Assembly: GCA_001791995.1 (NCBI GenBank)
Contig: MGFR01000005.1
Coordinates: forward strand, 26,895 to 90,894
Reading direction: 5' to 3'
DNA length: 64,000 bases
Source of the DNA: Candidatus Woesebacteria bacterium RBG_13_46_13
GTDB taxonomy: Bacteria; Patescibacteriota; Microgenomatia; UBA8517
Both the position numbers and the translations under genes were made by a program. Shown piece after piece: positions 5,953 to 18,337 of the stretch. The notes beneath the pieces were generated by a model that saw only the letters and a program-made list of their open reading frames with translations, did no database searches and was not told the origin of the DNA. Every line of letters begins with the position of its first letter. Positions within the stretch are counted from its first letter, which is position 1.

Positions 5953-7092
5953 TCAATTGGATTTTAATGAATGGACTTCTAAGGATTTGATAGTTTTTGC
6001 AACTCTTATCATTTGATTTTCTGTAATTGCTAATCCGGAAGGCAGGTATAGACCTCTAGTTGCGATGTCTTCGGCTATCGGAAAATTTTCAGTTTTATTC
6101 AAATATTTCTTTAACACTGGTTGATCTTTCGGAGGATAGAAGAAATCCCTCGTATCAATACCCTTTTCCTTAAGTCTATCCCTTAACTCATCCTTTGTAA
6201 TTCCGATCTTTTCCGGATCGACCAATACTGAATACATCCAGTAAACGTTGGTTGCGTACCTTTTGGTAATAGGAGTCCTTACTCCGGGAATATCTTTCAA
6301 TAGTAATCCGTAAAGATTAGCCATGTATTGTTTCTTAAGGAGATATTCTTCTACGTGTTCCAACTGGCCACACCCTAAGGCTGCCTGGAGATTTGTTAAT
6401 CGGTAATTAAAACCAACCCCGTCGTGAATAAAACGTTTTTCTGTCGAATGGTGTAAATCTTTAAATTTTCGAGCCGCCTCAGCTAACTTTTCATCATTGG
6501 TCACTACCATTCCACCCTCTCCCGTTGTCACAATTTTGTTCCCATAGAAACTGAAACAGTTAACTACTCCAAAAGAACCTACTTTCTTACCTCTGTAGGT
6601 GGCACCATGAGCTTCTGCCGCATCCTCGACAACAAAGAGCTTGTGCTTTTTTGCAATCTTCATTATCGGGTCCATATCTGCGGGATGTCCATAAATGTGT
6701 ACCGGCATTATGGCTTTCGTCTTTTTTGTAATTTTTTTTTCAATCAGTTTCGGGTCAATGCAATAAGTTTCGGGCTCACAGTCCACAAAAACAGGTTTGG
6801 CGCCGACAAATATTACTGCCAGCCAAGAGGCGGCCATGGTAAAGGCGGGGATAATTACTTCATCTCCGGGGCCTATTCCCAAAGAAAGAAGGGCTACGTG
6901 TAGTGCTGCAGTACCGTTAGAAACCGCTACCGCGTATTTTGTTCCGATATACTCTGCGAACTTCTCTTCAAAAAGGCCTACATACTTCCCGGCAGAGGAG
7001 ACCCACCCCGTATTGAGAGCGTCATTGACGTAAATCTTTGCTTCCTCGGAAATTACTGGTTCGTTAACTGGAATGAAATCATCCATGTTCAT
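5953..7092 (-). CDS. DegT/DnrJ/EryC1/StrS-family PLP-dependent sugar aminotransferase
   Basis: Strong family signature: DEVIIPAFT, HIYGHPADMD, VVEDAAEAHGATYRGKKVGSFG, and FYGNKIVTTGEGGMV (a K within 'FYGNK' is the likely PLP lysine). Confidence 0.85.
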   Translation of the reverse strand: MNMDDFIPVNEPVISEEAKIYVNDALNTGWVSSAGKYVGLFEEKFAEYIGTKYAVAVSNGTAALHVALLSLGIGPGDEVIIPAFTMAASWLAVIFVGAKPVFVDCEPETYCIDPKLIEKKITKKTKAIMPVHIYGHPADMDPIMKIAKKHKLFVVEDAAEAHGATYRGKKVGSFGVVNCFSFYGNKIVTTGEGGMVVTNDEKLAEAARKFKDLHHSTEKRFIHDGVGFNYRLTNLQAALGCGQLEHVEEYLLKKQYMANLYGLLLKDIPGVRTPITKRYATNVYWMYSVLVDPEKIGITKDELRDRLKEKGIDTRDFFYPPKDQPVLKKYLNKTENFPIAEDIATRGLYLPSGLAITENQMIRVAKTIKSLEVHSLKSN

Positions 7093-7498
7093 GCTTTCTG
7101 TAGATTTTTGCCTTTTTTTCTCCGGGGTAAGGTCCTTGCTTTATTTCGATTAGTCTGCTCTTTTTAAGAATTTTCAAACCATGCCCTCCTGAAATAAAGA
7201 GAATAAAATCACCCGCTGAAAGAATTACCGATTTTACCTTTCTCCACTGCTCCGAATAAAGGTTCACGCGTACTTTGCCTTTTTCCAAATATAGGAATTC
7301 CTGCGTGGTATCCACCTTGTACTTGATATCTTGTCGGTGAATATGGTCTCTAATTATTTTGCCCGCGGGGTGCTCGATAAGCCCCAATTGAAGCGTATAG
7401 TCATCGGGGGTAAGAAAATTGACTCCATCTGCCCCTAGTTCCTTTCGAAAGATGTGGGCAATTACCTTACCTTTATATTCAATTGTTTCTTGTAGCAT
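7079..7498 (-). CDS. small cupin-fold protein (WxcM/WbuC-like, sugar-nucleotide modifying accessory protein?)
   Basis: 139 aa; cupin motif HPAGKIIRDHIH...; sits between the DegT aminotransferase and a GT4. Confidence 0.4.
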   Translation of the reverse strand: MLQETIEYKGKVIAHIFRKELGADGVNFLTPDDYTLQLGLIEHPAGKIIRDHIHRQDIKYKVDTTQEFLYLEKGKVRVNLYSEQWRKVKSVILSAGDFILFISGGHGLKILKKSRLIEIKQGPYPGEKKAKIYRKHEHG

Positions 7499-8735
7499 TT
7501 TCGTCTTTAAAATCTTTTAGCACACCACTTATTGTCCTTTCAAAGTCTTTATTGTCCCAAAGTTTGAGTCTTTCCCTCCCCTTCCTTGCTAAGTCTTTCC
7601 TTAATTTTGGACTAGTATAGACCTTAAGAATTCCATCGGCAATATCTTTTGGATTCTTTGGATTAATTAAAAGGCCTGCATTTCCTAATTGTTCTCTACA
7701 CCCCCTGATATCAGAATAAAGAACCGGTGTTCCCATGGTCCACGCCTCATATACGGGAATATTTGTTGGCCCTAATAAGGTTGGCATAACCATTGCGGTA
7801 GCATTTTTGTATATTACAGATAGCTCTTCATTATCAACATACCCGAGATAAATGATATCTTTCTCAAGTTTATTATTCTTGATAAATTTTATGACCTCTT
7901 CAAAAGTACTATAATCTGCTGCTTTTGAGCCTGTAAGAATTAACTTAATGTCTATGTGTTTTGTCTTTAATTGTTTGACAGCTTTTATCAAATTTATATG
8001 GTTTTTATGCGGCCAGAATTTTGCGGGGTAAAAAATATAAGAATCTGGAAGATTAAGTTTCTTTAATATATTCCTTTCTTGGTTTCTTGTAATTTTGATG
8101 TTTAAATAAGATGGCGGAATATAGGGAAGAACCACAATTTTATCGGTCTTGATTTTATAATATCGTTTCAAATTTTCCTTTAATGTACCTGAGTCTACAA
8201 ATATCTTGTACGCTTTTCGGGAAACATTAGTAAGACCATATTCACGGTATTCCCATCGACCACCTGCGGTTGCTTCTTTAAGCTTAGGTTTGTTTCTGTG
8301 ACCTAAGTCGTAAACGGTAACAACCGAAGGAATATCGACAAGAAAAGATAAATAAGTTAACGAAGGGAAAAATATGATATCCAGTTTGTGCTTTCCCAGA
8401 AGTGCAATCAAGCCTCGCTGGCTTATTTTATAGAGAAACTCTATTAATGGGAAAAGGCCCATTTTGTAAACAAAAGAAAAAAAATTAAAAGGGAGATTCC
8501 CCAAGATATTCGAAATCAATCCTCTTAATAGATATAGATTCCTTGGAGACTTACTATAGAGGTTTATTAATCTGACGTTTTTCCTCTTAAAAATATCTTG
8601 TGGATAATCTGGGGAAACCGAGTAGATGAAGTATTGATTATTTGGAATCTTTACTAAAGCCTCCACCATCGACACGCAATATTGATAGGCGCCACCTTGG
8701 CTTTTTTGGGGAGTAAAGAATATACCAACTCTCAT
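7479..8735 (-). CDS. GT4-family (GT-B) glycosyltransferase
   Basis: C-terminal GT-B half with ...ILTGSK..., YLGYVDNEEL, PTLLGPTNIPVYEAWTMGTPVLYSD (E-x7-E-like). Confidence 0.6.
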   Translation of the reverse strand: MRVGIFFTPQKSQGGAYQYCVSMVEALVKIPNNQYFIYSVSPDYPQDIFKRKNVRLINLYSKSPRNLYLLRGLISNILGNLPFNFFSFVYKMGLFPLIEFLYKISQRGLIALLGKHKLDIIFFPSLTYLSFLVDIPSVVTVYDLGHRNKPKLKEATAGGRWEYREYGLTNVSRKAYKIFVDSGTLKENLKRYYKIKTDKIVVLPYIPPSYLNIKITRNQERNILKKLNLPDSYIFYPAKFWPHKNHINLIKAVKQLKTKHIDIKLILTGSKAADYSTFEEVIKFIKNNKLEKDIIYLGYVDNEELSVIYKNATAMVMPTLLGPTNIPVYEAWTMGTPVLYSDIRGCREQLGNAGLLINPKNPKDIADGILKVYTSPKLRKDLARKGRERLKLWDNKDFERTISGVLKDFKDENATRNN

Positions 8736-9502
8736 TTAGTTTTTCTTGCTACCACGAAGATGTCCCACTTGTCGTCTGCAATTTTGGATTTTACCTCAAG
8801 AAAATTTGATACGTTTACCAATTCAAAACCCGCTTTCTCCAAAAAGTAACCAAGTTCGGGAATTGACCAGAATCTCATCGGGTGAACTTCTGTAACAACA
8901 TCTTTAAGCTCCGAGCCGACGATATCCATTACCTTAAACGAAATTTCAATTAGATTTTTTTCTAAATAGAGCTTGGAAGAAGTTAATCTGACGATATGTC
9001 TATCCCCAATAACTAACTCCTTAATCCGGTCGGTCGGACGATCCTTTAGAACAGCAGGTCCGTGCCAACAATCAAACATTAATAATCCCCCAATGTTCAA
9101 GCTTCTGTTTACGTTTTTAAGCATATTTTCAAACTGTTTATTTTCTGTCTGGTAACCAACTACATTAAACATAGATATTCCGCAGTCGAACTTACGTGAG
9201 GCTTTAAACTTACCAACATCTGCTTTTGTTAGTTGAACCCTTTTCCCCAACCTTTGTACGTCGATCTTCTTTTGAAAGGCCGACAGCATTGTCTCCGACC
9301 TGTCTATTCCTAAAATCTGATACCCTTTTTTTGCTAGTAAGACTTCGTGGTTTCCAGAACCGCATCCCAAACTGATGATGCTTGCTGCTTTTTTCTTGGA
9401 AAATCTTTTTATCATCTTCTGAATAAAATGAACCTCCTCGGGGTAATTCTTGTCCCTATATATCAAATCGTAGTATTGGGAATATTTGCCAAAATTACTC
9501 AT
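8732..9502 (-). CDS. class I SAM-dependent methyltransferase
   Basis: Motif I ISLGCGSGNHEVLLAKKGYQILGIDRSETML; 4-nt overlap with the upstream gene. Confidence 0.75.
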   Translation of the reverse strand: MSNFGKYSQYYDLIYRDKNYPEEVHFIQKMIKRFSKKKAASIISLGCGSGNHEVLLAKKGYQILGIDRSETMLSAFQKKIDVQRLGKRVQLTKADVGKFKASRKFDCGISMFNVVGYQTENKQFENMLKNVNRSLNIGGLLMFDCWHGPAVLKDRPTDRIKELVIGDRHIVRLTSSKLYLEKNLIEISFKVMDIVGSELKDVVTEVHPMRFWSIPELGYFLEKAGFELVNVSNFLEVKSKIADDKWDIFVVARKTK

Positions 9503-9999
9503 TTGCGTACTTTCCTCGATGAAATAAACTCGATATTGTTCCCATCTGGGTCCTTAGCATAGACCATATATCTTCCTTTATTCGGACCTGCTGGAATAAC
9601 AAGCGGATCGGAAATAATTAATCCACCTTGAAGCTTAAAACGGACGATGAAGTTTAAAAAATCATTAACTTCAAAACAGATATGTGCACTTCCTATGTTA
9701 TTTGTGGCGCTGTTTAGTTTTTTACCTTTTGGGTTAACGTATTCCACCAATTCGAGGTAACAATTCTCACCTTTTAAGTAGGCGATTTTCAGATGAGCAT
9801 TGGGTATCCCAGTGGCCTTACCCGCAAAAGAAGATTTTCTGTCAGAAATATCCATCAAGATAAGATTACATGCGGTTTCATAAAATCTAACAGATTTTCG
9901 CACACTACCTACCGTATAGCTTAAGTGATTTATTTTGTTAGGCATCCTGGTAGGTAAGGGTCTCGCTTTTGAGTAAACTAGCACAATTCTTTCGACCAT
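9499..9999 (-). CDS. VOC-family (glyoxalase/bleomycin-resistance fold) protein
   Basis: Beta-alpha-beta-beta-beta modules (INHLSYTVGSVRKSVRFYE..., GSAHICFEVNDF..., DPDGNNIEF). Real start is probably the internal ATG near 9945 (MPNKINHL...), giving a short overlap with the cyclase gene. Confidence 0.6.
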   Translation of the reverse strand: MVERIVLVYSKARPLPTRMPNKINHLSYTVGSVRKSVRFYETACNLILMDISDRKSSFAGKATGIPNAHLKIAYLKGENCYLELVEYVNPKGKKLNSATNNIGSAHICFEVNDFLNFIVRFKLQGGLIISDPLVIPAGPNKGRYMVYAKDPDGNNIEFISSRKVRK

Positions 10000-11080
10000 A
10001 AGGATATTCCTCGATAAAGTTTTTTAAGAAATTCCTAGCTTTTCTCGGTTCCAGCTTATAGAAAAAGGAGTCTTTGCTCCTATACGGCACGCCGATGTCT
10101 CTGAGAAGTACTAAATTTAAATATTTTCCTGTCGATTTCTTGTCACGCATCATAATCTTTAACAAATCGTCTACATCAAGGTTTTTCTCAACATAAATGT
10201 TGAGGCCAAGCTTTTTCATCATGGAAATAATATTTTCCACCGAAGAAGATTTGGTTAATCCCATCATCTTTCCAAGCTCAAGGGCAATTACACTACCGGC
10301 CGAAATGGCGTCGCCGTGAAGAATTCGATAATTACTGAGCTTTTCAATAGCGTGGCCAAAAGTATGCCCGAGATTACTAGCCTGGGGATGCACTTTCCTA
10401 ATCGTTATTCTAACCCTGATTGTTTCTTCTATCATCGAGGTTAAATCGCTTTTCTTTCTTGATTTGATATACCAACCCATCGTCGTAATCAATTTTTTCG
10501 ATCCCAAAAGGCCATATTTAAAGACTTCCGATAAACCCTGGCGGTGAAAGTGGGGCAGATTGGTATCTAAGAAATAGATATTGCAATAAACGAAAAGTGG
10601 ATAATAGAATGTCCCCAATAAATTTTTCGAGTATTCTGTATTTAAGCAGGTTTTACCTGCCGTTGAGGCGTCAACCATTCCGATTAATGTAGTCGCAATT
10701 ACTGCAAACGGTAACCCTCGCATATAGGTTGAGCAGGTAAAACCGACCAAATCGATAACCGTTCCTCCACCAACACAAATTACTAAATCGGCAAGGTTAC
10801 AATTATTTTTTTCTAAAAAGGAGACTAATTTAGGGTAGAAGGACAAAGATTTACTTGCTTCATTGGCGTTTACTTCGAATGTGATAATTTCTTTCTTGTG
10901 TCGCTTGAGCTGTAATCTTATTTTTGTCCCATAAATTCGTTTCACCTTCCTGTCTATTACCAATATCATTCGATTATATTTCTCGGAGTTGAAATTACCA
11001 ATCCAGCCCATTTTGGGCTTATCGTCGATAATAAACTCTATTCTGTTTTTTGTATGATAGGTTGTTTGTAAAGTTTTCAT
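9938..11080 (-). CDS. 3-dehydroquinate synthase-family sugar-phosphate cyclase (DHQS/EEVS/DOIS superfamily)
   Basis: Aligns by eye with AroB: VICVGGGTVIDLVGFTCSTYMRGLPFAVIATTLIGMVDASTAGKTCLN...NLLGTFYYP versus [46 protein letters not shown]...NMIGAFYQP. Later ...LGHTFGHAIE... metal-binding His pair. Confidence 0.8.
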   Translation of the reverse strand: MKTLQTTYHTKNRIEFIIDDKPKMGWIGNFNSEKYNRMILVIDRKVKRIYGTKIRLQLKRHKKEIITFEVNANEASKSLSFYPKLVSFLEKNNCNLADLVICVGGGTVIDLVGFTCSTYMRGLPFAVIATTLIGMVDASTAGKTCLNTEYSKNLLGTFYYPLFVYCNIYFLDTNLPHFHRQGLSEVFKYGLLGSKKLITTMGWYIKSRKKSDLTSMIEETIRVRITIRKVHPQASNLGHTFGHAIEKLSNYRILHGDAISAGSVIALELGKMMGLTKSSSVENIISMMKKLGLNIYVEKNLDVDDLLKIMMRDKKSTGKYLNLVLLRDIGVPYRSKDSFFYKLEPRKARNFLKNFIEEYPYGRKNCASLLKSETLTYQDA

Positions 11081-11083
11081 TTT

Positions 11084-11842
11084 CTATTTTTGGTCAAGGT
11101 TTTGAACAAGTAGTTTACCACCAGATATTTCAACATCGGCACCGGTGATGTATGCGGATGCTTCAGACGCAAGAAATAAAATGCCCTTTGCCACATCTTC
11201 CGGTTTTCCTACTCTTTTCATAGCTATCTGAGAAGTTACCACCTTGCTTTTTTCGCGAGCAAGTTTTTTTGTCATGTCTGTAAGAATAAATCCCGGAGAA
11301 TAGGAATTTACTCTTATTCCATATTTTGCCCATTCGGCAGCCATAATTTTTGTAAGGCCAAGTACGGCAATTTTACTCACCGAATAAACGCTTCTATTAA
11401 GAGACGGTATTTTTGCTGCCAAGGAACCAGCATTAATTATTACACCATGTCTGATTTTTCTCATGTGTTCTGCAATTTTTTTTGAGGCAAAAAAAAGAGA
11501 TTTAAGATTTGTATTCATAATCATATCCCACTCTTCTTCTGTGGTATTCGATAGCAAACCTTCGGGGTATATCCCTGCGTTATTTATCCAAATATCTATA
11601 TCTTTTTTTTGGGTAAACTCTGAGATCCATTTTTCAATTCCTGCGATATCATTGACGTCCAGCGTTACCGATAGAAAATTTTTAGATCGAATATTTACAG
11701 GTTTGGTCCTTGATAAATTTACCACTGACGCCCCTGCGTCAAGAAAGGCACTGGCAACGGCATTACCGATTCCCCTCGAGGCTCCGGTTATTACAACGGT
11801 CTTTCCTCGAAAATTGTATTTTATTTCTGGGCTTTTTTTCAT
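11084..11842 (-). CDS. SDR-family NAD(P)-dependent oxidoreductase
   Basis: TVVITGASRGIGNAVA (TGxxxGxG), NNAG, catalytic YSVSK (YxxxK). Confidence 0.85.
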   Translation of the reverse strand: MKKSPEIKYNFRGKTVVITGASRGIGNAVASAFLDAGASVVNLSRTKPVNIRSKNFLSVTLDVNDIAGIEKWISEFTQKKDIDIWINNAGIYPEGLLSNTTEEEWDMIMNTNLKSLFFASKKIAEHMRKIRHGVIINAGSLAAKIPSLNRSVYSVSKIAVLGLTKIMAAEWAKYGIRVNSYSPGFILTDMTKKLAREKSKVVTSQIAMKRVGKPEDVAKGILFLASEASAYITGADVEISGGKLLVQNLDQK

Positions 11843-13170
11843 TTTTGTAAATACAGATGGACATCCCCAACCCCGGTTCCGGTTGGTTTCATTTTGATTA
11901 ATGAACCCAACTTTGAATGAAAAACATAGCTATCATTGTTTTGCAGATATTTTTCGACTTTCAGCTTCATAAGCGAAATCCTTTCCAAATCTTCGTTGTC
12001 AACCATCGCGCCCCCAATGCCCTTGATGAAATCGATGCCGTCAGTCCCCAAACCAGCCATGACAAATCTTTTCTCCTTAGGCAATTTTTTGGTCAAATTA
12101 GCAACAAGCTCCTGATTCCTTCCTCCCCTTCCTGTCCCTTTTACCTTCACCGAAATCTCACTATTAAATAATATTGCGATAGGCCTAGAGCTATCTTCTG
12201 ACAAGGCCCTTATTATAGAGGCAATTTTTTCGGACGCAAAATCCATTTTCCCCACAACCGGGGGTTTATTAATAATCACAGCATATCCTAACTCTTTGGC
12301 CCTTTTGGCCATGGCTGATAGAGCAGTTGTCGAATCGGCCAAAATATAATTGTGGACATTTTTAAATATTGGGTCCCCTGGTTTAGGAGTCTCATCGACT
12401 TCTCCCCGAACTCCCTTTTTCAGATGACGCTTGATTGATCCAGGAATTTTGCTATAGAGACTATGTTTCCTCAAAATTCTGTCTGCGTCTGAATAGGTAG
12501 AAGTGTCGGGCTCCGTGGGACCGCCGGCAACAACATCCTTGGGGTCAATGAGGTCAGAGATGGTTATGCATATTATTCTCGCCGGCTGAAAACTTTTAGC
12601 TAGCTGTCCTCCCTGAATTCGAGAAAGGTGTTTCCTAACTATCTGAATTTCCCTCGTAGGAACACCTCCTTTGGTCATTAATTCGACAGTTTTCCGCATA
12701 TCCCCAAGCGATATGCCTTCCTGGGGAGAAAACATGGATGCGGATCCACCTCCCGAAAGCAAGCAGATCACCGTGTCTTCCTTGTCAATTCTTGTCGCAG
12801 CCTTCAATATTGTTTCCATTCCTCTTATTGCCCCCGCCGATGGCAGCGGATGGGTTACTTTTTGTATCTTAATCTTGGTCGTTTTAACAACGTTCGGAGA
12901 ATTGACTAACCCGAAGTATATCTTTCCTTTTGGAAATTTCTTTTCCAATTGACTAGCCATATTGGCTGAAGCTTTTCCGCCCCCGATTATAAATAACCTT
13001 CCTTTGGCCAAATCAAACCTATCCCCTTCGATAATGAGCTTATTGTTTTGATAATGTATTTTTCCCGATATCGCCACCGCTGGGGTTACACTTATGAGTC
13101 CTGCCTTAAGGATATCCAAGGCCTCCTTTTTTAAACCTTTGGAATATTTTGAACGAAAGATATCTTTCAC
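11839..13170 (-). CDS. MOFRL/DUF4147-family kinase (glycerate 2-kinase GckA-like)
   Basis: N-terminal IIGGGKASANMA; C-terminal MOFRL signature KGTGRGGRNQELVANL and GTDGIDF. Confidence 0.7.
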   Translation of the reverse strand: MKDIFRSKYSKGLKKEALDILKAGLISVTPAVAISGKIHYQNNKLIIEGDRFDLAKGRLFIIGGGKASANMASQLEKKFPKGKIYFGLVNSPNVVKTTKIKIQKVTHPLPSAGAIRGMETILKAATRIDKEDTVICLLSGGGSASMFSPQEGISLGDMRKTVELMTKGGVPTREIQIVRKHLSRIQGGQLAKSFQPARIICITISDLIDPKDVVAGGPTEPDTSTYSDADRILRKHSLYSKIPGSIKRHLKKGVRGEVDETPKPGDPIFKNVHNYILADSTTALSAMAKRAKELGYAVIINKPPVVGKMDFASEKIASIIRALSEDSSRPIAILFNSEISVKVKGTGRGGRNQELVANLTKKLPKEKRFVMAGLGTDGIDFIKGIGGAMVDNEDLERISLMKLKVEKYLQNNDSYVFHSKLGSLIKMKPTGTGVGDVHLYLQK

Positions 13171-13886
13171 TTGATAATTTTTAACAGTTTGTTTTCGGCG
13201 ATTGTCAAATCATTCTGGTCGTCTATTTCCTGCCACGGGATACCTTTAATGTCCAATACAAAAAGGTGTTCCGTCTTAAGAAATTCTTTAATGGGCTTTT
13301 CAATCTGTACTCCTTCTCCCCTCGCTTTTTTCACTACATCTTCGGCAATCTGGAAATATTTCAGGGCTCCCTCTTTTGAAAACTTATACATCCCCAAAAC
13401 TCGTTTACTCTTCTCTTTTAGTCCCCTCCCCATTTCAAGAACTTGATGCCCTTTTATCCTGACATTCATCGAATTTGTTTCCACGACCCCAGATGAGTCA
13501 ACCACGGTAACGTTTTGACGTGGATCTTTGATTAACTTGGTTAAAATCTTTTTATTAAACAGAACGTCTCCATTAACAAGAATGAATTCGCCATCCAGAT
13601 CCTTCCTCGCTATGAATAAAGAGTTTAAGTTGTCGGTAGAAGAATATTTCTTGTTCAGTCGATAAATTAATCGACATTGATTATATTTTTGTCCGAGTAT
13701 TTTTCTAAACATCGTCCCCCTATAACCCACCACGACAACGACCTCGCTAAACCCCATCTCTGAAAAATTATCTAATAAGTAAGCAATTAGCGGTTTACTT
13801 CGGATACGAACTAAAGATTTGGGGCAATTTTTTGTATAAGGGAGAAGTCGCCTCCCTGTTCCTGCTGCCAAGATTACTGCTTTCAT
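13167..13886 (-). CDS. sugar/polyol-phosphate nucleotidyltransferase (NTP_transferase fold; LicC/IPCT/ValB-like cytidylyl- or guanylyltransferase)
   Basis: MKAVILAAGTGRRLLPYTKNCPKSLV (G-x-G-T-R-L motif), ...LVNGDVLF... Confidence 0.8.
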   Translation of the reverse strand: MKAVILAAGTGRRLLPYTKNCPKSLVRIRSKPLIAYLLDNFSEMGFSEVVVVVGYRGTMFRKILGQKYNQCRLIYRLNKKYSSTDNLNSLFIARKDLDGEFILVNGDVLFNKKILTKLIKDPRQNVTVVDSSGVVETNSMNVRIKGHQVLEMGRGLKEKSKRVLGMYKFSKEGALKYFQIAEDVVKKARGEGVQIEKPIKEFLKTEHLFVLDIKGIPWQEIDDQNDLTIAENKLLKIIK

Positions 13887-13991
13887 CGAATAATATACCT
13901 CTTACAATGCTATAGAATACTAAATTATCCAGGCTATAACAAATAAGGCCCTGCGTAGACAAAATAGGAAGCCAGTGATAACATCTTCGTT
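13887..13991. promoter_or_regulatory. divergent intergenic region (105 bp) between the nucleotidyltransferase operon (-) and the GAPDH-like/CDP-alcohol phosphotransferase pair (+); probable bidirectional promoter
   Basis: One of only three non-coding gaps over 90 bp in the window. AT-rich with -10-like hexamers (tagaat, tacaat). Confidence 0.3.
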
Positions 13992-15038
13992 ATGAACAAG
14001 CTTAGAATAGGCATTAATGGGTTTGGGCGTATCGGTCGGGCAATATATCGGATAAACCACCTCAAACATTTATTCGATATTGTAGCAATCAACGACATTA
14101 ATCCAGATAATCACAACATAGCTTATCTTCTTCAATATGATTCCACCTACGGTAAATTTCCCGAAAAAGTCCGAGACGATAAAAAGCATTTAATGATCGG
14201 GGGTAAAAAGATTTACGTATATCATCAGGATAATATTTCCGACGTGCCCTGGGACAAACACGGTGTGGATATCGTAATAGAAAGTTCAGGGGTAAGGACA
14301 AATTTAGACAATTTGGATAAGCTACGAGACAAAATTAAAAACGTAATAGCAACGTATGATCCCGGCAATATTGCTAAAAGCATTATTCTTGGGGTTAATG
14401 AAAAATCTGTAAACCCTTCTACTAATTTCCTATTCTCTGCTAGCATTTGCGATGCCGTGGCTCTGGCTCCTATTGTAGATATCATCCTCAAATCAAATAA
14501 TATAGTATCGGGTTTTTTAACGACAATTCATCCTTGGTTATCATATCAAAACCTTCTTGATGGTCCATCTAAATCGTGGACGCATCCTGGAGATGTTTTT
14601 TCCCATTATGCTTTAGGAAGATCTTCTGTCTCGAATATTATCCCCAAATCGACTTCTGCTGTCCAAGCAACTGAAAAAGTTATACCTAAATTAAATAATA
14701 AGATAATATCTTTTTCTTTCCGTAGCCCGACAAACATCGTCTCGGGCGCAGTGCTCACCCTATTACTTAAAAAACCAACTACGTATAACAGGTTCGTTTC
14801 GATATTTAAGAGATCTGAAAAAAAGCAAAAATATAACATTTTAAAGAATTCTGTCGAGCCATTAACTTCGATTGATTACATAGGAGAAGAGTATTCTGCA
14901 ATAATTGATCATCGGTGGACGAAGGTCAACAACAAACGGCACGTGGAATTAGTCTATTGGTATGATAATGAATGGGGCTACGGCAATAAAGTGATAGAAT
15001 TAATTTCTTTGATAGGCAAAAGGTACAAATCTAGATAA
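13992..15038 (+). CDS. divergent glyceraldehyde-3-phosphate dehydrogenase-family dehydrogenase (GAPDH/E4PDH-like)
   Basis: INGFGRIGR Rossmann motif, YDSTYGKF, catalytic region SASICDAVALAP (Cys retained with a one-residue insertion relative to ASCTTNCLAP), TTIHPW (His retained), VSNIIPKSTSAVQA, WYDNEWGYGNKVIELI. Confidence 0.8.
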   Translation: MNKLRIGINGFGRIGRAIYRINHLKHLFDIVAINDINPDNHNIAYLLQYDSTYGKFPEKVRDDKKHLMIGGKKIYVYHQDNISDVPWDKHGVDIVIESSGVRTNLDNLDKLRDKIKNVIATYDPGNIAKSIILGVNEKSVNPSTNFLFSASICDAVALAPIVDIILKSNNIVSGFLTTIHPWLSYQNLLDGPSKSWTHPGDVFSHYALGRSSVSNIIPKSTSAVQATEKVIPKLNNKIISFSFRSPTNIVSGAVLTLLLKKPTTYNRFVSIFKRSEKKQKYNILKNSVEPLTSIDYIGEEYSAIIDHRWTKVNNKRHVELVYWYDNEWGYGNKVIELISLIGKRYKSR

Positions 15039-15042
15039 TCAT

Positions 15043-15801
15043 ATGAACAAAGTGCCCTCAGTTAAAGAACTGTATAAAAAAATAAGTAAAAATGTTCTTA
15101 CCCCCAATACCGCATTCACTTACGAATTGTGGTATTCCCGACTTATCGGAAGACGGCTTTCAATATACTTTACGTGGTTATTTCTTCATACAAACCTCAG
15201 CCCAAATAATGTCACATTAATCCACACCATTTTTAGTCTAGGCGGATCTGCCTTGTTAGCCATACCCAATAAGACAGCTCTTCTTGTTGGCGCACTTTTC
15301 TTTAACCTCTATCTTATCTTAGATAGCACCGACGGTGAGATGGCAAGGTATAAGAAACAAACAAGTGCATTGGGTGGCTATCTCGATACTCTCTCGCACA
15401 TCGCAATTTACGGCACATTATATCTTGCACTTGGTGTTAATCTTTACTTAAGAACGGGTAATGTTTGGGCTGTCTCGATGGGAACAGCCACCGCGTTTTT
15501 CTTCGCTTTTGCTTCAGCCGTACATCACCTTGATCCTCTCTTAAACAAGATGTCTTATCTAAAGATGAGGGAACGAGAAAATAAACTCATTTTCATATCT
15601 ACTAATATTTATCAGTTTGTAACCGAAGATTTAACAATTGTGGCGTATATCCTCATCTTTGGATTACTTGGTTATCCTAAAATACTCGGTTACGACCCAT
15701 ACACTCTTTTTCTATACCTGAATTTCTTTGCGATTGTGTTTGGGGGAATTCTATTTAATATTGTGAAGAAAATCATGGATCCGAGATACCATAGATCTTA
15801 A
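15043..15801 (+). CDS. CDP-alcohol phosphotransferase-family integral membrane enzyme
   Basis: DSTDGEMARYKKQTSALGGYLDTLSH matches D-G-x2-A-R-x8-G-x3-D-x3-[D->H]. About 6 TM helices. 4-nt convergent overlap with the minus-strand GT4. Confidence 0.6.
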   Translation: MNKVPSVKELYKKISKNVLTPNTAFTYELWYSRLIGRRLSIYFTWLFLHTNLSPNNVTLIHTIFSLGGSALLAIPNKTALLVGALFFNLYLILDSTDGEMARYKKQTSALGGYLDTLSHIAIYGTLYLALGVNLYLRTGNVWAVSMGTATAFFFAFASAVHHLDPLLNKMSYLKMRERENKLIFISTNIYQFVTEDLTIVAYILIFGLLGYPKILGYDPYTLFLYLNFFAIVFGGILFNIVKKIMDPRYHRS

Positions 15802-16955
15802 TCCTCCTTTTGCCTTACAGAATAAATACTTTTGAGAATGGCTTCGACCAACTGATCGATTCCGAAAGAGTTAATTATTCTACGACTCTCCATGCCAAAT
15901 CTTACTCTTTTCGATCGATCCTTAAGTAATTTTTCTATTGCAGTAACCATTTTATTAATATTTCCCGAAGGGAATATATATCCATTGACCCCGCTCTTTA
16001 TCAAATCCGCTCCAGCTCCAACCTTATCCCCTGTAATTACCGGTAGACCGCTAGCCATTGCTTCATTAATAACCATCCCCCAGGTTTCTTCTCTGGATGG
16101 TAAAACAAAAATATCAGAAATTCCGTAATATTTTGGTAATAATTTATTGTCCACGAAGCCTGTTAGGATTACCTTTTTTGTTAATCTATTATCTCTAATA
16201 TATTTTTCTATTCCTAACATTTCCATACCGTAGCCAACCATTAACAAGGTCGCATTCGGAAATGATAATAGAATCTTCTTGAAAGCTTCAAGCAAGTCGT
16301 AAACACCTTTCCTTATAATTAGTTGGCCATTAAACATCACAACTCTGTCTTTGGGGCCGATGCCCAACTTTTTTCTCAGTGCTACCTTTTCCGCCCAACT
16401 GGCTTTTGAAACTAGAGAGAAAAGCTTAACATCTATTGCCGAATATCCGACAAATATTTTTTCCTTTTTAGCCCCCAATTTAACTAGGTAGTTCTTGGCT
16501 CTTGTCCCCGCAGCAATATAAGCATCGGCACAATTAACCATAAATTTCGTTAGAGGCATAAACACTTTTCTTCTCCAATTATCTTCGTAAACTGTGCTTT
16601 CGGAACGGAGAATCAGTTTTTTACCGAACAGTTTGCAATATATTGCCGATACATATGATGGAAAGTCTGCCCAACCCGGGGCAATAACAACATTCGGCTT
16701 TGAAATTAGCAATTTTTTCAAAAAATTGAAGGAAACAGTAAATGGAATATAGTCATTTTTCCCAAAAGGTATATCGAAGGATTTCAGGATCTGGTATTTA
16801 AATTTGATGGTTTTTCGGTTAACCTGCCACCTTCTATTTTTCGCAGATATGGAATAGAAAAAAACCATAAGATCTATTCCTGGTTCCCTAGAGAGATCCT
16901 TTAAAATGGGGATTGCCCGGGGAGGAATAGTCGGGTTAAGAAGAAGAACTTTCAT
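15798..16955 (-). CDS. GT4-family glycosyltransferase
   Basis: PSREETWGMVINEAMASGLPVITGD (EX7E motif); GT-B layout. Confidence 0.8.
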   Translation of the reverse strand: MKVLLLNPTIPPRAIPILKDLSREPGIDLMVFFYSISAKNRRWQVNRKTIKFKYQILKSFDIPFGKNDYIPFTVSFNFLKKLLISKPNVVIAPGWADFPSYVSAIYCKLFGKKLILRSESTVYEDNWRRKVFMPLTKFMVNCADAYIAAGTRAKNYLVKLGAKKEKIFVGYSAIDVKLFSLVSKASWAEKVALRKKLGIGPKDRVVMFNGQLIIRKGVYDLLEAFKKILLSFPNATLLMVGYGMEMLGIEKYIRDNRLTKKVILTGFVDNKLLPKYYGISDIFVLPSREETWGMVINEAMASGLPVITGDKVGAGADLIKSGVNGYIFPSGNINKMVTAIEKLLKDRSKRVRFGMESRRIINSFGIDQLVEAILKSIYSVRQKED

Positions 16956-18337
16956 CGTTTTCGAAAAAACATCATATTAGCTATCCTGGCAAAAATATCT
17001 GTGGAACCTATATAAAAGATAAATAATGGACTAAAAAACATTGCCATTCTCCGAGCCGAATCAGGAATGTGATCCCAACCAGGATAATTTAGGCTAAATA
17101 GATAAGTACCAACTATCAATATGACAAAGTTTGCAGCAATGATAAGTAAAAGGGTACTTCTCCCCGCTTTAGATTTCTGTACAAAACTCACTACGGCAAT
17201 CGTAATGAAGATGGGAAATAAAATTCCCCAGCTAATTATCACGCTACTATAAACAAACGAAAGGATTTCTTTAATCCTATCTGGGTCAAGTTTCTGAACT
17301 AATTCTACGGCTGCTCCGGACAGCTGGTTGGCTACTCCCCTTGCCTTTCCAAAAAACTTTACCATAAGAAATCTCCACGGAAGCTGAATTGCAAAAAAAG
17401 GGACCGAATAAATAAACGGGTAAAAGTATTTCCGTTTCCATACTGCGTAAACAACAAGAACAATGAGGCCCGCAAGCCAGAAGGGTTCGACGTCTCTCGC
17501 CCAAGTACTTAACCCCACCATAAGTCCGGATAAAATTAAGTAACGTTTTTTCTGCTTTTCCATAGACAAAAAGAGATATATCATCCCTAAAACGAAATAA
17601 ATTGTGTATGGAAGGTTTGTATAAGAAATCGTAGAGTGCTTAAGAAGAATTGGGGTTGAAACGACGAGAAGAGTTGCCAGCAAACTTGCACGCCTGGTTG
17701 TAAATCTTCGCAATGATGCGCCGAAAATCATTACAAAAGAGAGAAATTGCATGCTATAAACAAATTGAGGATTATGACCATTAAAAATATATACGATCGC
17801 ATGAAGGAGAGAAGTTAATAAAGGGTAATGTGCAAAATATGAATAATTACTGGCAACTTGGACGAAGTAACCCGTCCGAGTGATAACTTTAGCGCGAAAA
17901 TCGTATAGAGCTAATGCGTCCCATTCATTAACTGGCCAATAGAGGGTAGAGAGAAGACTCATCAAGATAAATCCAGCAATTACAATTGTTAGAGTTTTTT
18001 CCCCGAAAGGGAAGTTAGAGAAAGATCTTATTAGAGATAAGAACTTATGTCGAAAATTGCCCCTCTTCCTCCGAAGAGTCGCCTTCAAGAAATAAATAAA
18101 ACCAGCGGCCACAACTAAAATAGAAGGGCCGGTAATCTTCATCCCGAAGAGAGACAATACAAAGAGGATAAACGTAAATAAACCAGTCCCAAGTAGATAA
18201 GAAAAACCCAAATGCTCGAGCATTTCCGCGTCGGGATTTATTAACGAACTAGCAAGATGTCCAAACCAGCAAATAAGTAGAATTATTATCAATACCTGCA
18301 TAATATTAGTTATGTTTTGATTTTGATTACTCCCCAA
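16952..18337 (-). CDS. polytopic membrane protein, family 'A' (unknown; candidate GT-C or polymerase/ligase-like)
   Basis: 461 aa, about 12 TM. Shared motifs with 19313..20611: WDALALYDFRAK, SYTNLPYTIYFVLG, STWARDVEPFW. Confidence 0.45.
   Translation of the reverse strand: MGSNQNQNITNIMQVLIIILLICWFGHLASSLINPDAEMLEHLGFSYLLGTGLFTFILFVLSLFGMKITGPSILVVAAGFIYFLKATLRRKRGNFRHKFLSLIRSFSNFPFGEKTLTIVIAGFILMSLLSTLYWPVNEWDALALYDFRAKVITRTGYFVQVASNYSYFAHYPLLTSLLHAIVYIFNGHNPQFVYSMQFLSFVMIFGASLRRFTTRRASLLATLLVVSTPILLKHSTISYTNLPYTIYFVLGMIYLFLSMEKQKKRYLILSGLMVGLSTWARDVEPFWLAGLIVLVVYAVWKRKYFYPFIYSVPFFAIQLPWRFLMVKFFGKARGVANQLSGAAVELVQKLDPDRIKEILSFVYSSVIISWGILFPIFITIAVVSFVQKSKAGRSTLLLIIAANFVILIVGTYLFSLNYPGWDHIPDSARRMAMFFSPLFIFYIGSTDIFARIANMMFFRKR

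Follow-up and report, generated by a model that had tools for sequence, protein, structure and literature searches.

The closest described system to the locus studied here comes from Caulobacter. CDP-glycerate, formed by the COG1213-type cytidylyltransferase CpgD, is an established donor of phosphoglycerate, and the sphingolipid of Caulobacter carries a phosphodiester-linked glycerate (PMC12275187). The Caulobacter enzyme, reported in 2025, acts on plain 2-phosphoglycerate. Glyceroyl-type groups are also found as N-acyl substituents of nonulosonic acids, for which the genes were unidentified as of 2017 (PMC5378307). For glycerate, then, there are known examples of either type of linkage. We regard CDP-glycerate as the closest precedent for the cassette analyzed below.

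We have studied a window of 64,000 nucleotides (the whole stretch of DNA analyzed) from Candidatus Woesebacteria RBG_13_46_13, an uncultured CPR bacterium from groundwater. It contains a cassette of seven genes inside a very large surface-glycan locus. A preliminary description had suggested that these genes make a nucleotide-activated cyclitol or polyol phosphate and transfer it as a phospho-headgroup. The genes, their families and their divergent arrangement were as described (Table 1); coordinates and strands agreed for all seven open reading frames, and each protein matched its Pfam family above the gathering score. None of the cassette proteins reached an NCBIfam equivalog cutoff.

Table 1. 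Features of the cassette and its flanks (positions in the window)
Feature	Position	Strand	Basis or remark
DegT/DnrJ/EryC1-type sugar aminotransferase	5953..7092	-	Pfam PF01041, 418 bits; last gene of minus-strand operon
139-aa ORF	7079..7498	-	Context gene
GT4 glycosyltransferase	7479..8735	-	Pfam Glycos_transf_1, 105.8 bits; translationally coupled to cassette
SAM-dependent methyltransferase	8732..9502	-	Pfam Methyltransf_25/31/23/11
VOC/glyoxalase-fold metalloenzyme	9499..9999	-	Pfam Glyoxalase, 45.8 bits
DHQS-like cyclase	9938..11080	-	Pfam DHQ_synthase N-terminal + DHQS_C
Classical SDR oxidoreductase	11084..11842	-	Pfam adh_short_C2, 173.7 bits
Glycerate-2-kinase-type kinase, class II	11839..13170	-	Pfam DUF4147 + MOFRL, 188 + 88.6 bits
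LicC/IPCT/CpgD-type (COG1213-like) cytidylyltransferase	13167..13886	-	Pfam NTP_transferase
Divergent intergenic region	13887..13991	.	Between cytidylyltransferase operon and GAPDH-like/phosphotransferase pair
GAPDH-family thiol aldehyde dehydrogenase paralogue	13992..15038	+	Pfam Gp_dh_N + Gp_dh_C
Integral-membrane CDP-alcohol phosphotransferase	15043..15801	+	Pfam CDP-OH_P_transf, 34.9 bits (cutoff 22)
Second GT4 glycosyltransferase	15798..16955	-	Pfam Glycos_transf_1, 134.8 bits; context gene

The unit exceeds seven genes. From the cytidylyltransferase to the DegT gene, the minus-strand genes overlap by 4-20 nt, except that the SDR and cyclase genes stand 3 nt apart, and this series looks like a single operon. 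The methyltransferase gene shares 4 nt with each of its neighbors, the VOC and GT4 genes. The start codon of the VOC gene is probably the ATG at 9945, which encodes Met19 in the ORF as listed, because homologues begin just before an NH-x-S motif. Promoters in both directions are presumed in the 105-bp region between the divergent halves; sigma-70-like matches there were no commoner than in shuffled sequence. On the other flank the second GT4 gene is convergent with that of the phosphotransferase, overlapping by 4 nt. Window ORFs and Pfam searches revealed no shikimate genes near the cassette.

Many genomes from CPR, DPANN, Asgard and further uncultured organisms carry the cassette, on dozens of unrelated metagenomic contigs. 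It is a real, conserved unit that lies within a surface-glycan locus. Co-occurrence was counted in 16 well-flanked loci. Cyclase, SDR and GAPDH-like dehydrogenase were found together in all of them and the VOC protein in 12, far beyond chance. Unbiased ORF clustering of the loci gave no further universal partner of this core. Overlapping genes occur in the order GAPDH-like, cyclase, SDR in L008, L111 and L112; in L212 and L214 the order is SDR, kinase, cytidylyltransferase, cyclase. The VOC domain is fused to the cyclase in four proteins (P0008, P0011, P0016 and P0029), and its slot is occupied in L215 by a xylose-isomerase-like TIM barrel.

Several flanking genes recur with the core. A DegT gene, whose enzyme is predicted to produce an amino sugar for the acceptor glycan, is near the module in 12 of the 16 loci. 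Methyltransferase homologues adjoin it in eight loci, paired with the GT4 gene in L005, L089, L102, L212 and L213 as in the window; the target of O-methylation may possibly be the acid or the acceptor. The 139-aa ORF matched no family in a Pfam search and, judged by eye, may be a cupin or a sugar ketoisomerase; a cluster of ORFs of about 142 aa recurs in the window, L005, L089, L102 and L212. The second GT4 enzyme has homologues close to the module in L008, L112 and L212.

In the loci examined, the four-enzyme module (GAPDH-like, DHQS-like, VOC and SDR) never occurs without one of two activation routes, and the two were found together in none. The route present in the window comprises a kinase and a LicC/CpgD-type cytidylyltransferase, with a CDP-alcohol or TagF-type phosphotransferase. 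The other uses an AMP-binding/PP-binding (acyl-adenylate) ligase with a carrier domain, usually together with a hexapeptide acyltransferase; an AMP-binding enzyme could in principle have some other acid as its substrate. This ligase replaces kinase and cytidylyltransferase in about one-third of the related loci. Adenylation activates carboxylates only, so that the second route indicates a carboxylate in the product of the module. Asn-synthase-like amidotransferases that adjoin the module in five loci, and ATP-grasp ligases at L214 and L215, point to the same group.

The kinase slot is filled by unrelated families, the MOFRL type in four loci with full flanks and in L090 (a short contig), and class I glycerate kinase (PF02595) in nine loci, accompanied in L003 by a phosphoglycerate-mutase-like His_Phos_1 protein. 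The MOFRL kinase of the window matches PH0495 (232 bits) and TM1585 (175 bits) in the PDB, and scores about 178 bits, below cutoff, with NCBIfam glycerate 2-kinase models. The alternation of two glycerate-kinase families and the existence of the adenylating route make a hydroxy-carboxylic acid resembling glycerate, rather than any neutral cyclitol or polyol, the most likely transferred group. The argument for a glycerate-like substrate is weakened by a third kinase candidate, an ORF with a weak match to DUF6206 that occupies the slot in a subgroup lacking the VOC protein.

The best solved relative of the cytidylyltransferase is LicC (1jyk, 70.6 bits; RmlA about 34 bits). In a comparison made by eye, its residues R13, K23, T84, N86, S89, N105, G106 and D107 have the order and spacing of R16, K26, T88, N90, T93, N110, G111 and D112, the residue pattern of CpgD (PMC13228409). 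The phosphotransferase groups nearest AF2299, DIPPS, AIP synthase and PIP synthase, with AF2299 (47.5 bits) and DIPPS (30.6 bits) its nearest solved relatives; on these grounds we rejected assignment to PgsA/PssA. Its motif D94xxD97G98xxA101R102...G111xxxD115 is conserved, but in the window His119 stands in place of the fourth motif Asp, and a TagF-type enzyme takes its place in L005, L089 and L102. The types of the two enzymes, together with the TagF swap, provide good support for the transfer of X-phosphate from a CDP-X donor. In this respect the nucleotide-activated headgroup of the preliminary description is supported. The cytidylyltransferase is of a type that acts on small phosphoesters and is not of the RmlA/GalU kind.

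The DHQS-like protein scores 251.6 bits with the NCBIfam aroB model, under the cutoff of 305. Its fold is that of a complete, confidently modelled sugar-phosphate cyclase, with TM values of 0.76-0.82 to DHQS, EEVS, DDGS and DOIS (0.82 to DHQS by Foldseek). The metal, phosphate and catalytic residues of DHQS are retained in the family, including those for NAD and phosphate elimination, and the enzyme is predicted to be NAD+- and metal-dependent and to eliminate phosphate. The loop carrying Glu260 and Arg264 of DHQS is deleted in every member; Lys250 is replaced by Arg224, Arg180-Gln181 have become invariant, and the C terminus carries an additional ordered tail. The deletion co-varies exactly with cluster context, and cassette neighbors are never seen beside DHQS-like genes in which the AroB loop is retained. 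Family-wide deletion and context together rule out that the cyclase is AroB.

The GAPDH-like protein scores 250 bits with TIGR01534, under the cutoff of 367. Among 24 homologues Cys149, His176, Arg195, Thr208 and Arg231 are retained, the changes Ser148 to Ile, Thr150 to Asp and Thr179 to Leu are fixed, and the family has an insertion of about 9 aa. Thus the inorganic-phosphate site is remodelled in 24 of 24 members with both anion-site arginines intact, which fits a phosphorylated aldehyde as substrate and an acid as product. The four metal ligands of the VOC protein are all kept across 18 homologues.

From the observed gene content, families, residue conservation and modular swaps we infer every substrate and product of the following scheme, in which the module would convert a sugar phosphate into a glycerate-like 2,3-dihydroxy acid. 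We prefer an acyclic 4-deoxytetronate. The GAPDH paralogue would oxidize a phosphorylated aldehyde, for which we favor erythrose-4-phosphate, to the acid (4-phosphoerythronate) without inorganic phosphate, the same oxidation as that of Epd. Using bound NAD+ and metal, the DHQS-like enzyme would transiently oxidize C2, eliminate the C4 phosphate and re-reduce, without cyclization, giving 2-hydroxy-3-oxobutanoate. The VOC protein is proposed to isomerize or epimerize this α-hydroxy-ketone, and the SDR to act as the ketoreductase that yields 2,3-dihydroxybutanoate (4-deoxytetronate, "methyl-glycerate"). We know of no precedent for the use of an acyclic four-carbon acid as substrate by a DHQS-like enzyme. 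In the literature we found neither a description of this enzyme combination nor any glycan reported to carry 2,3-dihydroxybutanoyl or a phosphate of it. The whole chain, including an acyclic acid from erythrose-4-phosphate, is put forward tentatively.

The same architecture could instead make a carbocyclic acid. The cyclase would truly cyclize a C6-C7 sugar phosphate (such as sedoheptulose-7-phosphate) or a DAHP-like acid, the VOC protein epimerize the ketocyclitol, and SDR and GAPDH-like enzyme adjust the oxidation level (for example, exocyclic CH2OH to CHO to COOH), a quinate-like α-hydroxy acid then being phosphorylated, CMP-activated and transferred. Such a pathway accounts for the evidence of an acid product, and for the full cyclase fold with intact catalytic residues. 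The cyclase-VOC fusions parallel the logic of EEVS and VOC epimerase, and also fit cyclitol pathways of the Val/Cet type; the TIM barrel of L215 fits those of the ebo type, and belongs to the family that the ebo operon pairs with a cyclase. However, the anion-site arginines suggest that the GAPDH-like enzyme takes a phosphorylated substrate, which would place its step ahead of phosphate removal by the cyclase, and an aldonate phosphate cannot cyclize. A bulky, tertiary α-hydroxy acid would have to serve as substrate for each of two unrelated glycerate-kinase families, a single SDR would serve both alcohol oxidation and ketone reduction, ORF clustering gave no DAHP synthase or other universal partner, and in sequence the cyclase is closer to DHQS than to the SH7P cyclases that are known. 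We consider this reading doubtful.

A neutral C7 cyclitol or polyol of valienol or valiolone type, which would be phosphorylated, nucleotide-activated and attached in the form of a cyclitol-phosphate headgroup on the pattern of IPCT/DIPPS, is improbable. The resemblance of the gene set (DHQS-like, VOC, dehydrogenase, kinase and nucleotidyltransferase) to ValA/ValD/ValC/ValB that had been pointed out is real, but the kinase and nucleotidyltransferase families of the Val/Acb pathways are different. Cytidylyltransferase and phosphotransferase both match the bifunctional NCBIfam IPCT/DIPPS model, and the nearest solved phosphotransferases are as noted, yet their scores (81 and 45 bits) fall far under its cutoff of 580. 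The identification of X as a neutral compound is further opposed by the swapping of two glycerate-kinase types, by the adenylating loci that dispense with kinase and cytidylyltransferase, and by the ever-present, intact aldehyde dehydrogenase, which would have no role. The amidotransferase and ATP-grasp neighbors indicate a carboxylate, and neither inositol-phosphate synthase nor another conserved partner emerged from ORF clustering.

It is still less probable that two functions are merely co-located, with kinase, cytidylyltransferase and phosphotransferase installing D-glycerate-2-phosphate via CDP-glycerate while the other four enzymes supply the same glycan with an unrelated component, a sugar or a cyclitol. 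The substrate of CpgD and the similarity of the kinase to true glycerate 2-kinases agree with this, but the four-enzyme module is equally tied to the adenylation route, and the genes show translational coupling and are interleaved in an order that varies among loci (L212, L214). Moreover, glycolysis already provides 2-phosphoglycerate as an intermediate, which would make a dedicated kinase needless. Chance clustering of housekeeping AroB, GAPDH, FabG, glycerate kinase and a PgsA-type phospholipid synthase, as the names in public records ("3-dehydroquinate synthase family protein", "Glycerate kinase", GAPDH NAD-binding-domain protein, "CDP-alcohol phosphatidyltransferase") might imply, is effectively refuted by the sub-cutoff scores, the loop deletion and its covariation with context, the remodelled GAPDH-like site, the recurrence within glycan loci across phyla, and the lack of shikimate genes nearby.

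Returning to the glycerate-like acid, we consider it probable that a CDP-activated hydroxy-carboxylic-acid phosphate is moved onto a glycan. The MOFRL kinase would phosphorylate a hydroxyl of the acid, and the cytidylyltransferase would then convert CTP and the phospho-acid into CDP-acid and PPi. We propose that the phosphotransferase passes the phospho-acid from this donor to a hydroxyl of a lipid-linked glycan or glycolipid made by the surrounding locus. The coupled methyltransferase might methylate the acid. The outcome would be a surface glycan decorated with an anionic, phosphodiester-linked acid.

The seven open reading frames (ORFs) of the cassette lie at the positions and on the strands proposed in the preliminary description. 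Its domain families are likewise upheld, each ORF giving Pfam matches above the gathering score (Glyoxalase/VOC; DHQ_synthase N-terminal and DHQS_C; the SDR family adh_short; DUF4147 and MOFRL; NTP_transferase; Gp_dh_N and Gp_dh_C; CDP-OH_P_transf). None of the seven proteins reaches an NCBIfam equivalog cutoff. The scores are 251.6 bits for aroB (TIGR01357, cutoff 305), 250 bits for type I GAPDH (TIGR01534, cutoff 367), 178.2 and 177.3 bits for the glycerate 2-kinase models (cutoffs 550 and 670), and 81.1 and 44.7 bits for the nucleotidyltransferase and phosphotransferase against IPCT/DIPPS (NF041135, cutoff 580). Each protein is thus a member of its family whose specific function is uncertain. 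The public record for Candidatus Woesebacteria RBG_13_46_13 (CPR/Patescibacteria) gives these genes generic names only.

The five minus-strand genes of the cassette run on into those of a methyltransferase, a GT4 glycosyltransferase, a 139-aa ORF and a DegT aminotransferase. Adjacent genes overlap by 4-20 nt throughout, except for a gap of 3 nt between the SDR and cyclase genes; the VOC gene most likely starts at 9945. Since the minus-strand genes form an unbroken overlapping series, the functional unit is probably a nine-gene operon together with the divergent GAPDH-like and phosphotransferase pair. A promoter scan of the divergent intergenic region gave matches no more frequent than in shuffled sequence. 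The 139-aa ORF has no Pfam match; by eye it has the look of a cupin or sugar ketoisomerase, and similar ORFs of ~142 aa were found again in the related loci L005, L089, L102 and L212.

Coordinates of the cassette, its surroundings and selected features of related loci (L numbers)
Feature	Location	Strand	Remark
VOC protein	window 9499-9999	-	
DHQS-like cyclase	window 9938-11080	-	
SDR	window 11084-11842	-	
MOFRL kinase	window 11839-13170	-	
Nucleotidyltransferase	window 13167-13886	-	
GAPDH-like protein	window 13992-15038	+	
CDP-alcohol phosphotransferase	window 15043-15801	+	
Methyltransferase	window 8732-9502	-	
GT4 glycosyltransferase	window 7479-8735	-	
139-aa ORF	window 7079-7498	-	between DegT and GT4
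DegT protein	window 5953-7092	-	
PMT_2/GT-C-like membrane proteins	window 2765-4363, 16952-18337		
Long series of large membrane-protein genes	window 16952-23203, 32266-57316		
Large ORFs without Pfam family	window 18310-19335, 19313-20611, 20601-21569, 21566-23203, 44617-46605		
GT2 domain and SAM-methyltransferase domain fused in a single ORF	window 23185-24642	-	
GT2 fused to PTPS_related membrane domain	window 54887-57316		
Phosphoglycerate-mutase-like His_Phos_1	L003:12664-13338	+	between GAPDH-like gene and kinase
Third kinase-slot ORF, 222 aa	L112:11579-12247	-	adjoins cyclase or nucleotidyltransferase; L-D-P-H-I-K-N-F...V-D-T-F motif
ATP-grasp (CPSase_L_D2) ligases	L214:5024-6343, L215:1008-2156		beside module, type P loci
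Xylose-isomerase-like TIM barrel (AP_endonuc_2)	L215:7272-8159	-	in VOC slot
Viral DHQS-like clade, example locus	L181:5372-15085		

A glycan locus of very large size makes up the remainder of the window, and Wzx-type flippases are encoded at both ends. Several methyltransferases and glycosyltransferases of the GT2 and GT4 families are found there, together with membrane glycosyltransferases of PIG-V-like and PMT_2 type; several of its large ORFs belong to no family. Two stretches are long series of large membrane-protein genes, and for a small CPR genome the set of glycan-assembly genes is unusually large. One window ORF that seemed TagF-like was rejected, its link being solely through a methyltransferase domain fused to the TagF-like ORF of locus L102. 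No tRNA or Rfam features were found in the window. The GC content is ~0.36-0.41 over roughly 4-24 kb, the cassette included, compared with 0.41-0.48 elsewhere in the window; the composition profile reveals no sharp island at the cassette, and the shift has no sharp edge there.

What kind of enzyme is the cyclase-like protein? It has thousands of homologs, the closest being metagenomic proteins of 44-60% identity. The few named close homologs are from Woesebacteria, Pacearchaeota and Nanoarchaeia, and several homologs carry a C-terminal VOC domain. Compared with solved structures, the protein scores 149 bits against true 3-dehydroquinate synthase (DHQS), 90 against DDGS, 85 against the EEVS ValA and 66 against DOIS; sequence identity is 26-29% to DHQS versus 19-21% to EEVS, DDGS and DOIS. 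For the sedoheptulose-7-phosphate cyclases (EEVS, DDGS and EVS) a 14-residue active-site fingerprint was reportedly defined by Kean and colleagues in 2014. In alignments with Vibrio DHQS and E. coli AroB, the window protein retains the GGG NAD motif (G104-106), the metal ligands E185, H239 and H255, the phosphate-binding residues R121, K143, N153, N236, H243 and K314, and the catalytic D137 and K188. An AlphaFold model (pLDDT 94.4, pTM 0.92), in which the C-terminal tail is ordered, gave Foldseek TM scores of 0.82 with DHQS, 0.79 with EEVS, 0.78 with DDGS and 0.76 with DOIS. Judged by its predicted fold, NAD motif, and metal and phosphate residues, the protein belongs to the superfamily of sugar-phosphate cyclases (DHQS, EEVS, DDGS, EVS, DOIS, EboD). 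The TM scores are similar, and so the fold does not settle the substrate.

The window protein and every aligned family member have a six-residue deletion just before the sequence N-L-G-H-T. This removes the DHQS loop bearing Glu260 and Arg264 (A. nidulans numbering), which we take to be the proton-relay and DAHP-carboxylate residues. The family also has Arg224 in place of Lys250, has gained an invariant Arg180-Gln181 pair, and is extended at the C terminus by a tail of ~50 residues. The expectation that this is not an AroB is therefore confirmed, by the score below the aroB cutoff, by the deleted loop, and by the absence of shikimate-pathway context around the gene in the window, where its neighbors are glycan genes.

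The deletion also separates the family in its surroundings. Among ~55 loop-retaining DHQS-like loci taken as a control, none had the cluster neighbors; the only loop-deleted genes in that set, L147 and L150, both had them. A genome-contig scan with the full cyclase alignment returned mostly ordinary AroB, because the NLGHTFGH motif is shared, and its sole family member was L008, from a Heimdallarchaeota metagenome-assembled genome (MAG). The plasmid collection yielded ordinary AroB only, at ≤34% identity. Nearly all matches to the acyl-type cyclase P0085 were metagenomic, with one additional named source, a Lachnospiraceae MAG (P0152). No cultured carrier of the cyclase family or the cassette was found in the homology searches or the plasmid collection. 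DHQS-like matches on viral contigs were rejected as family members, since they form a separate, loop-retaining clade. This clade is present on 42 IMG/VR viral contigs (L170-L211) and has the AroB loop in the form D-K-x-E-R-K-[FY]-L. An SDR always adjoins, with a DegT aminotransferase in about half of the loci, and the further neighbors in L181 are an HpcH/HpaI aldolase, a ThDP-dependent enzyme and NDP-sugar epimerases or dehydratases. The clade could belong to a pathway, borne on virus or prophage DNA, for an aminocyclitol or an unusual sugar.

The GAPDH-like protein likewise has residue changes of its own. When 24 copies from the clusters are aligned with GapA and Epd of E. coli, the catalytic Cys149 and His176 are invariant in all 24 copies, as are Arg195, Thr208 and Arg231. 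All members have Ser148 replaced by Ile, Thr150 by Asp and Thr179 by Leu, and contain an insertion of ~9 residues. The three replaced residues belong to the inorganic-phosphate/substrate-phosphate site of type I GAPDH. We read the paralog, from these residues, as a working thiol aldehyde dehydrogenase with an anionic and probably phosphorylated substrate, and the remodeled inorganic-phosphate site suggests that its product is the free acid. There is a precedent in pyridoxal phosphate biosynthesis, where the GAPDH-family enzyme Epd converts a phosphorylated aldose into a phospho-aldonic acid without inorganic phosphate, and PdxB then oxidizes C2 of 4-phosphoerythronate with NAD+. However, the window protein is no nearer to Epd (186-190 bits with the Epd models) than to GAPDH, and has motif changes of its own.

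The neighborhood was surveyed by contig look-ups, a metagenome scan with a family-specific sub-alignment, and phmmer maps of loci. The association described for the window proves to be general at its core: cyclase-like, SDR and GAPDH-like genes occur together in all 16 loci that have at least 4 kb on both sides, and a VOC gene in 12 of them. Unbiased clustering of all nearby ORFs in 21 loci gave no other universal partner. Some loci are not independent, since they are near-duplicates (L092 and L213). The core of GAPDH-like protein, cyclase-like protein, VOC and SDR is joined to either of two activation modules, and no locus has both. Type P, comprising the window and at least 12 other loci, has a kinase, a LicC-type nucleotidyltransferase and a phosphotransferase. 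The last is a CDP-alcohol phosphotransferase in the window, L001, L003, L212 and L215, and TagF-type in L005, L089 and L102. Type A (L213, L092, L099, L114, L118 and the P0119 locus, with the shorter contigs L097, L100, L109, L117, L147 and L150) lacks the kinase and LicC-type nucleotidyltransferase, and has an AMP-binding ligase, whose PP-binding carrier is either fused or separate, and usually a hexapeptide acyltransferase. In the P0119 locus the type A genes lie within a nonulosonic-acid cluster (NeuB, CMP-NulO synthetase). Adenylation and carrier loading are restricted to carboxylic acids. The product of the core is thus most simply a carboxylic acid, which could be attached as an acyl group or, after phosphorylation of a hydroxyl and CMP transfer, as a phosphodiester. 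A carboxylate is further supported by neighbors of the module: Asn-synthase-like amidotransferases in five loci and ATP-grasp ligases in two, L214 and L215.

Carriers of the module range over CPR bacteria, the DPANN and Asgard archaea, and the Lachnospiraceae MAG; complete CPR genomes such as GCA_040961665.1 are among them. In the Asgard locus L008 (PBWW01000056.1) the cassette lacks the VOC gene, and consists of Asn-synthase-like, GAPDH-like, cyclase, SDR, DUF6206-like and nucleotidyltransferase genes. In L215 the VOC slot is occupied by a TIM barrel that looks like a non-orthologous replacement of the isomerase/epimerase step.

The occupant of the kinase slot varies. The window kinase has class II glycerate 2-kinase architecture, its DUF4147 and MOFRL domains scoring 188 and 88.6 bits in Pfam. 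Its matches to solved structures are Pyrococcus PH0495 (232 bits) and Thermotoga TM1585, annotated as 'glycerate kinase, putative' (175 bits). On these scores, and with the NCBIfam scores below their cutoffs, it is a MOFRL family member whose substrate may differ from that of the archaeal glycerate 2-kinases. In nine loci the slot is filled by the structurally unrelated class I glycerate kinase PF02595. One of these, the Nanoarchaeia-type locus L003, is alone in having a His_Phos_1 gene in the module, whose product may shift a phosphate between the acid's 3- and 2-hydroxyls. That two different families of glycerate kinase have been recruited independently argues for a 2,3-dihydroxy acid resembling glycerate. 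This argument is qualified by the L215 TIM barrel and by a third candidate for the slot in the VOC-less subgroup (L008, L098, L105-108, L110 and L112), a 222-aa ORF with a weak DUF6206 match and, by eye, a kinase-like motif, which could represent a third, unrecognized family of small-molecule kinases.

The best solved relative of the nucleotidyltransferase is LicC, the CTP:phosphocholine cytidylyltransferase (70.6 bits), followed by PntC-type, MurU-type, IPCT and IMPCT (4jd0) enzymes. RmlA and GalU give weak scores of about 30-35 bits, bearing out the view that it is not an ordinary enzyme of that type. The phosphotransferase (34.9 bits in Pfam against a cutoff of 22) contains D94, D97, G98, A101, R102, G111 and D115. 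In its signature, D1xxD2GxxAR...GxxxD3xxxD4, the fourth aspartate is His119 in the window, His in L212, Asp in L001 and L215, and Ser in L003; the other signature residues are invariant across these loci. Its nearest solved relatives are AF2299 and DIPPS. Among NCBIfam models those for DIPPS, AIP synthase and PIP synthase score 42-45 bits, compared with 18.6 and 19.9 bits for the PgsA/PssA models, so that, as had been anticipated, it is not of the housekeeping phospholipid type.

How might these enzymes act together? We infer a pathway of seven steps, in which the VOC protein is observed to have its four metal ligands intact. The GAPDH paralog would convert erythrose-4-phosphate into 4-phosphoerythronate, with Epd as precedent. 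The DHQS-like enzyme, using bound NAD+, would oxidize C2 as PdxB does, eliminate the C4 phosphate in the manner of DHQS, and re-reduce the product to 2-hydroxy-3-oxobutanoate. This α-hydroxy-ketone would be isomerized or epimerized by the VOC and reduced by the SDR to 2,3-dihydroxybutanoate. A glycerate-kinase-type enzyme would then phosphorylate the acid, the cytidylyltransferase would make the CDP-acid, and the membrane phosphotransferase would place the phospho-acid on a lipid-linked glycan, possibly with modification by a methyltransferase. Compared with Epd and PdxB, the phosphate elimination and reduction that follow, and the biological purpose, would be different.

The generic part of this model, transfer of a CDP-activated hydroxy-acid phosphate to a glycan, we regard as probable; the full chain including an acyclic acid is a serious possibility that falls short of an even chance. 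We propose tentatively that the 'cyclase' is a non-cyclizing, NAD+-dependent, phosphate-eliminating lyase acting on 4-phosphoerythronate, and that with the Epd-like GAPDH paralog, VOC isomerase and SDR it forms a new route from erythrose-4-phosphate to 4-deoxytetronate (2,3-dihydroxybutanoate). On this proposal the acid would be linked to the surface glycans of CPR, DPANN, Asgard and further uncultured microbes in either of two ways, as a phosphodiester from a CDP-acid donor that is itself new, or by the adenylate/carrier route as an N-acyl group.

The main alternative retains the same architecture but makes the acid carbocyclic and quinate-like. This is rather unlikely. If the substrate of the GAPDH-like protein is phosphorylated, its oxidation should come before the cyclase-like enzyme takes the phosphate away; in L008, L111 and L112 the overlapping genes stand in a matching order, GAPDH-like, cyclase, SDR. 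The cyclase would then receive an aldonate phosphate, which has no carbonyl available for cyclizing. Plain D-glycerate is also judged unlikely as the product, because 2-phosphoglycerate is glycolytic and because the four-enzyme module always comes with one for activation.

The preliminary description had envisaged a neutral cyclitol or polyol, transferred as a phospho-headgroup from a nucleotide-activated donor. The donor and headgroup are supported, but the neutral identity is not, and we consider it improbable: the adenylating type A route, the glycerate-kinase families in the kinase slot, the amidotransferases and the ATP-grasp ligases all favor a carboxylate. The cyclitol idea drew on the C7-cyclitol pathways (validamycin ValA/ValD/ValC/ValB, acarbose Acb, cetoniacytone CetA/CetB), in which a cyclase-superfamily enzyme is paired, sometimes fused, with a VOC-fold enzyme, and a dehydrogenase, kinase and nucleotidyltransferase complete the set. 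However, the cassette cyclase is nearer to DHQS than to EEVS/DDGS and falls in a loop-deleted clade of its own; the kinase slot holds MOFRL or PF02595, and the nucleotidyltransferase is LicC-type; and there is an obligatory GAPDH paralog and an alternative adenylation route. The Val and Acb families presumably use a ValC/AcbM-type cyclitol kinase, a GlgC-like ValB/AcbR nucleotidyltransferase and a pseudoglycosyltransferase, and no pseudoglycosyltransferase is found among the conserved neighbors of the cassette. The resemblance of the front half to these pathways is confined to the cyclase-fold/VOC pairing.

Two unrelated pathways that happen to be co-located are less credible still, since the four-enzyme core never occurs apart from an activation module. 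Housekeeping genes can be dismissed almost entirely, given the scores below equivalog cutoffs, the loop deletion in the cyclase and the remodeled GAPDH phosphate site.

By analogy, the back half resembles decoration by CDP-glycerate, CDP-inositol, CDP-glycerol, CDP-ribitol or CDP-choline. In 2025, CpgD (COG1213) of Caulobacter crescentus was shown to combine CTP with 2-phosphoglycerate into CDP-glycerate, which is proposed to serve as donor in the formation of ceramide diphosphoglycerate (PMC12275187); CpgA is the presumed transferase (PMC12275187, PMC13228409). Both systems would use a COG1213/LicC-type cytidylyltransferase to activate a phosphorylated hydroxy acid with CTP, the CDP-acid being the proposed donor of a phospho-acid headgroup. 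The residues reported from the CpgD crystal structures are R16, K26, T88, N90, T93, N110, G111 and D112 (PMC13228409), a set that includes catalytic Arg, Lys and Asp as well as Thr and Asn residues in contact with cytosine and glycerate; the window enzyme has R13, K23, T84, N86, S89, N105, G106 and D107, in the same order and at nearly the same spacing when compared by eye with the reported positions. CpgD differs in using glycolytic 2- or 3-phosphoglycerate, without a dedicated kinase or acid-building module, and the Caulobacter acceptor is a sphingolipid, not a glycan. The four extra enzymes of the cassette imply that its acid is non-standard.

In IPCT/DIPPS (CTP:inositol-1-phosphate cytidylyltransferase and CDP-inositol:inositol-phosphate transferase) and the archaetidyl- and phosphatidyl-inositol-phosphate synthases, which give the best NCBIfam and PDB matches of the window phosphotransferase, a LicC/IPCT-type enzyme is likewise followed by a CDP-alcohol phosphotransferase. 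IPCT/DIPPS is fused, whereas the two window proteins are separate and divergently transcribed. The cassette has no inositol-phosphate synthase, and the 21 loci contain no additional conserved partner such as myo-inositol-1-phosphate synthase. Its kinase and context point to an acid, the fourth motif aspartate is His, and the acceptor is probably a glycan. With TagD/TagF (CDP-glycerol), TarI/TarJ/TarL (CDP-ribitol) and LicC/LicD (CDP-choline) there is a common logic, a small phosphorylated molecule being converted to a CDP donor and then to a phosphodiester on a lipid-linked glycan; TagF-type transferases even take the place of the CDP-alcohol phosphotransferase in some loci. But the group would be other than glycerol, ribitol or choline, its precursors come from an unrelated pathway, and the window uses an integral-membrane CDP-alcohol phosphotransferase instead of TagF or LicD.

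Decoration with a nucleotide-activated phospho-headgroup is thus of a known kind, and the precursor pathway is undescribed. Literature searches, which extended to CPR or DPANN genes of the DHQS-like type, brought up no account of the gene combination; the set of GAPDH paralog, DHQS-like enzyme, VOC and SDR has no described counterpart that we could find. Nor did we find a report of 2,3-dihydroxybutanoyl groups on glycans. If the proposal is correct, 4-deoxytetronate would represent a class of glycan substituent that is both new and widespread. Nonulosonic acids are known to carry N-glyceroyl and di-O-methylglyceroyl groups, for which a 2017 paper reported that the genes had yet to be identified (PMC5378307). 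For hydroxy-acyl substituents of this glyceroyl type, on amino sugars as well as nonulosonic acids, the type A module offers candidate genes.

The conclusion that emerges is that the cassette is real, modular and widespread in poorly known lineages. CPR and DPANN organisms are not expected to make aromatic amino acids. The cassette accounts for '3-dehydroquinate synthase' genes in such organisms, and so corrects a widespread misannotation. One acid module plugs into two activation routes, and the pathway is therefore open to straightforward reconstitution in vitro. The cell surfaces of these lineages mediate host attachment, and to our knowledge almost nothing is known of their chemistry. The cassette, common in CPR/DPANN-type lineages, predicts a specific, testable anionic decoration of those surfaces, and would widen CDP-glycerate chemistry from one sphingolipid to glycans in several phyla.
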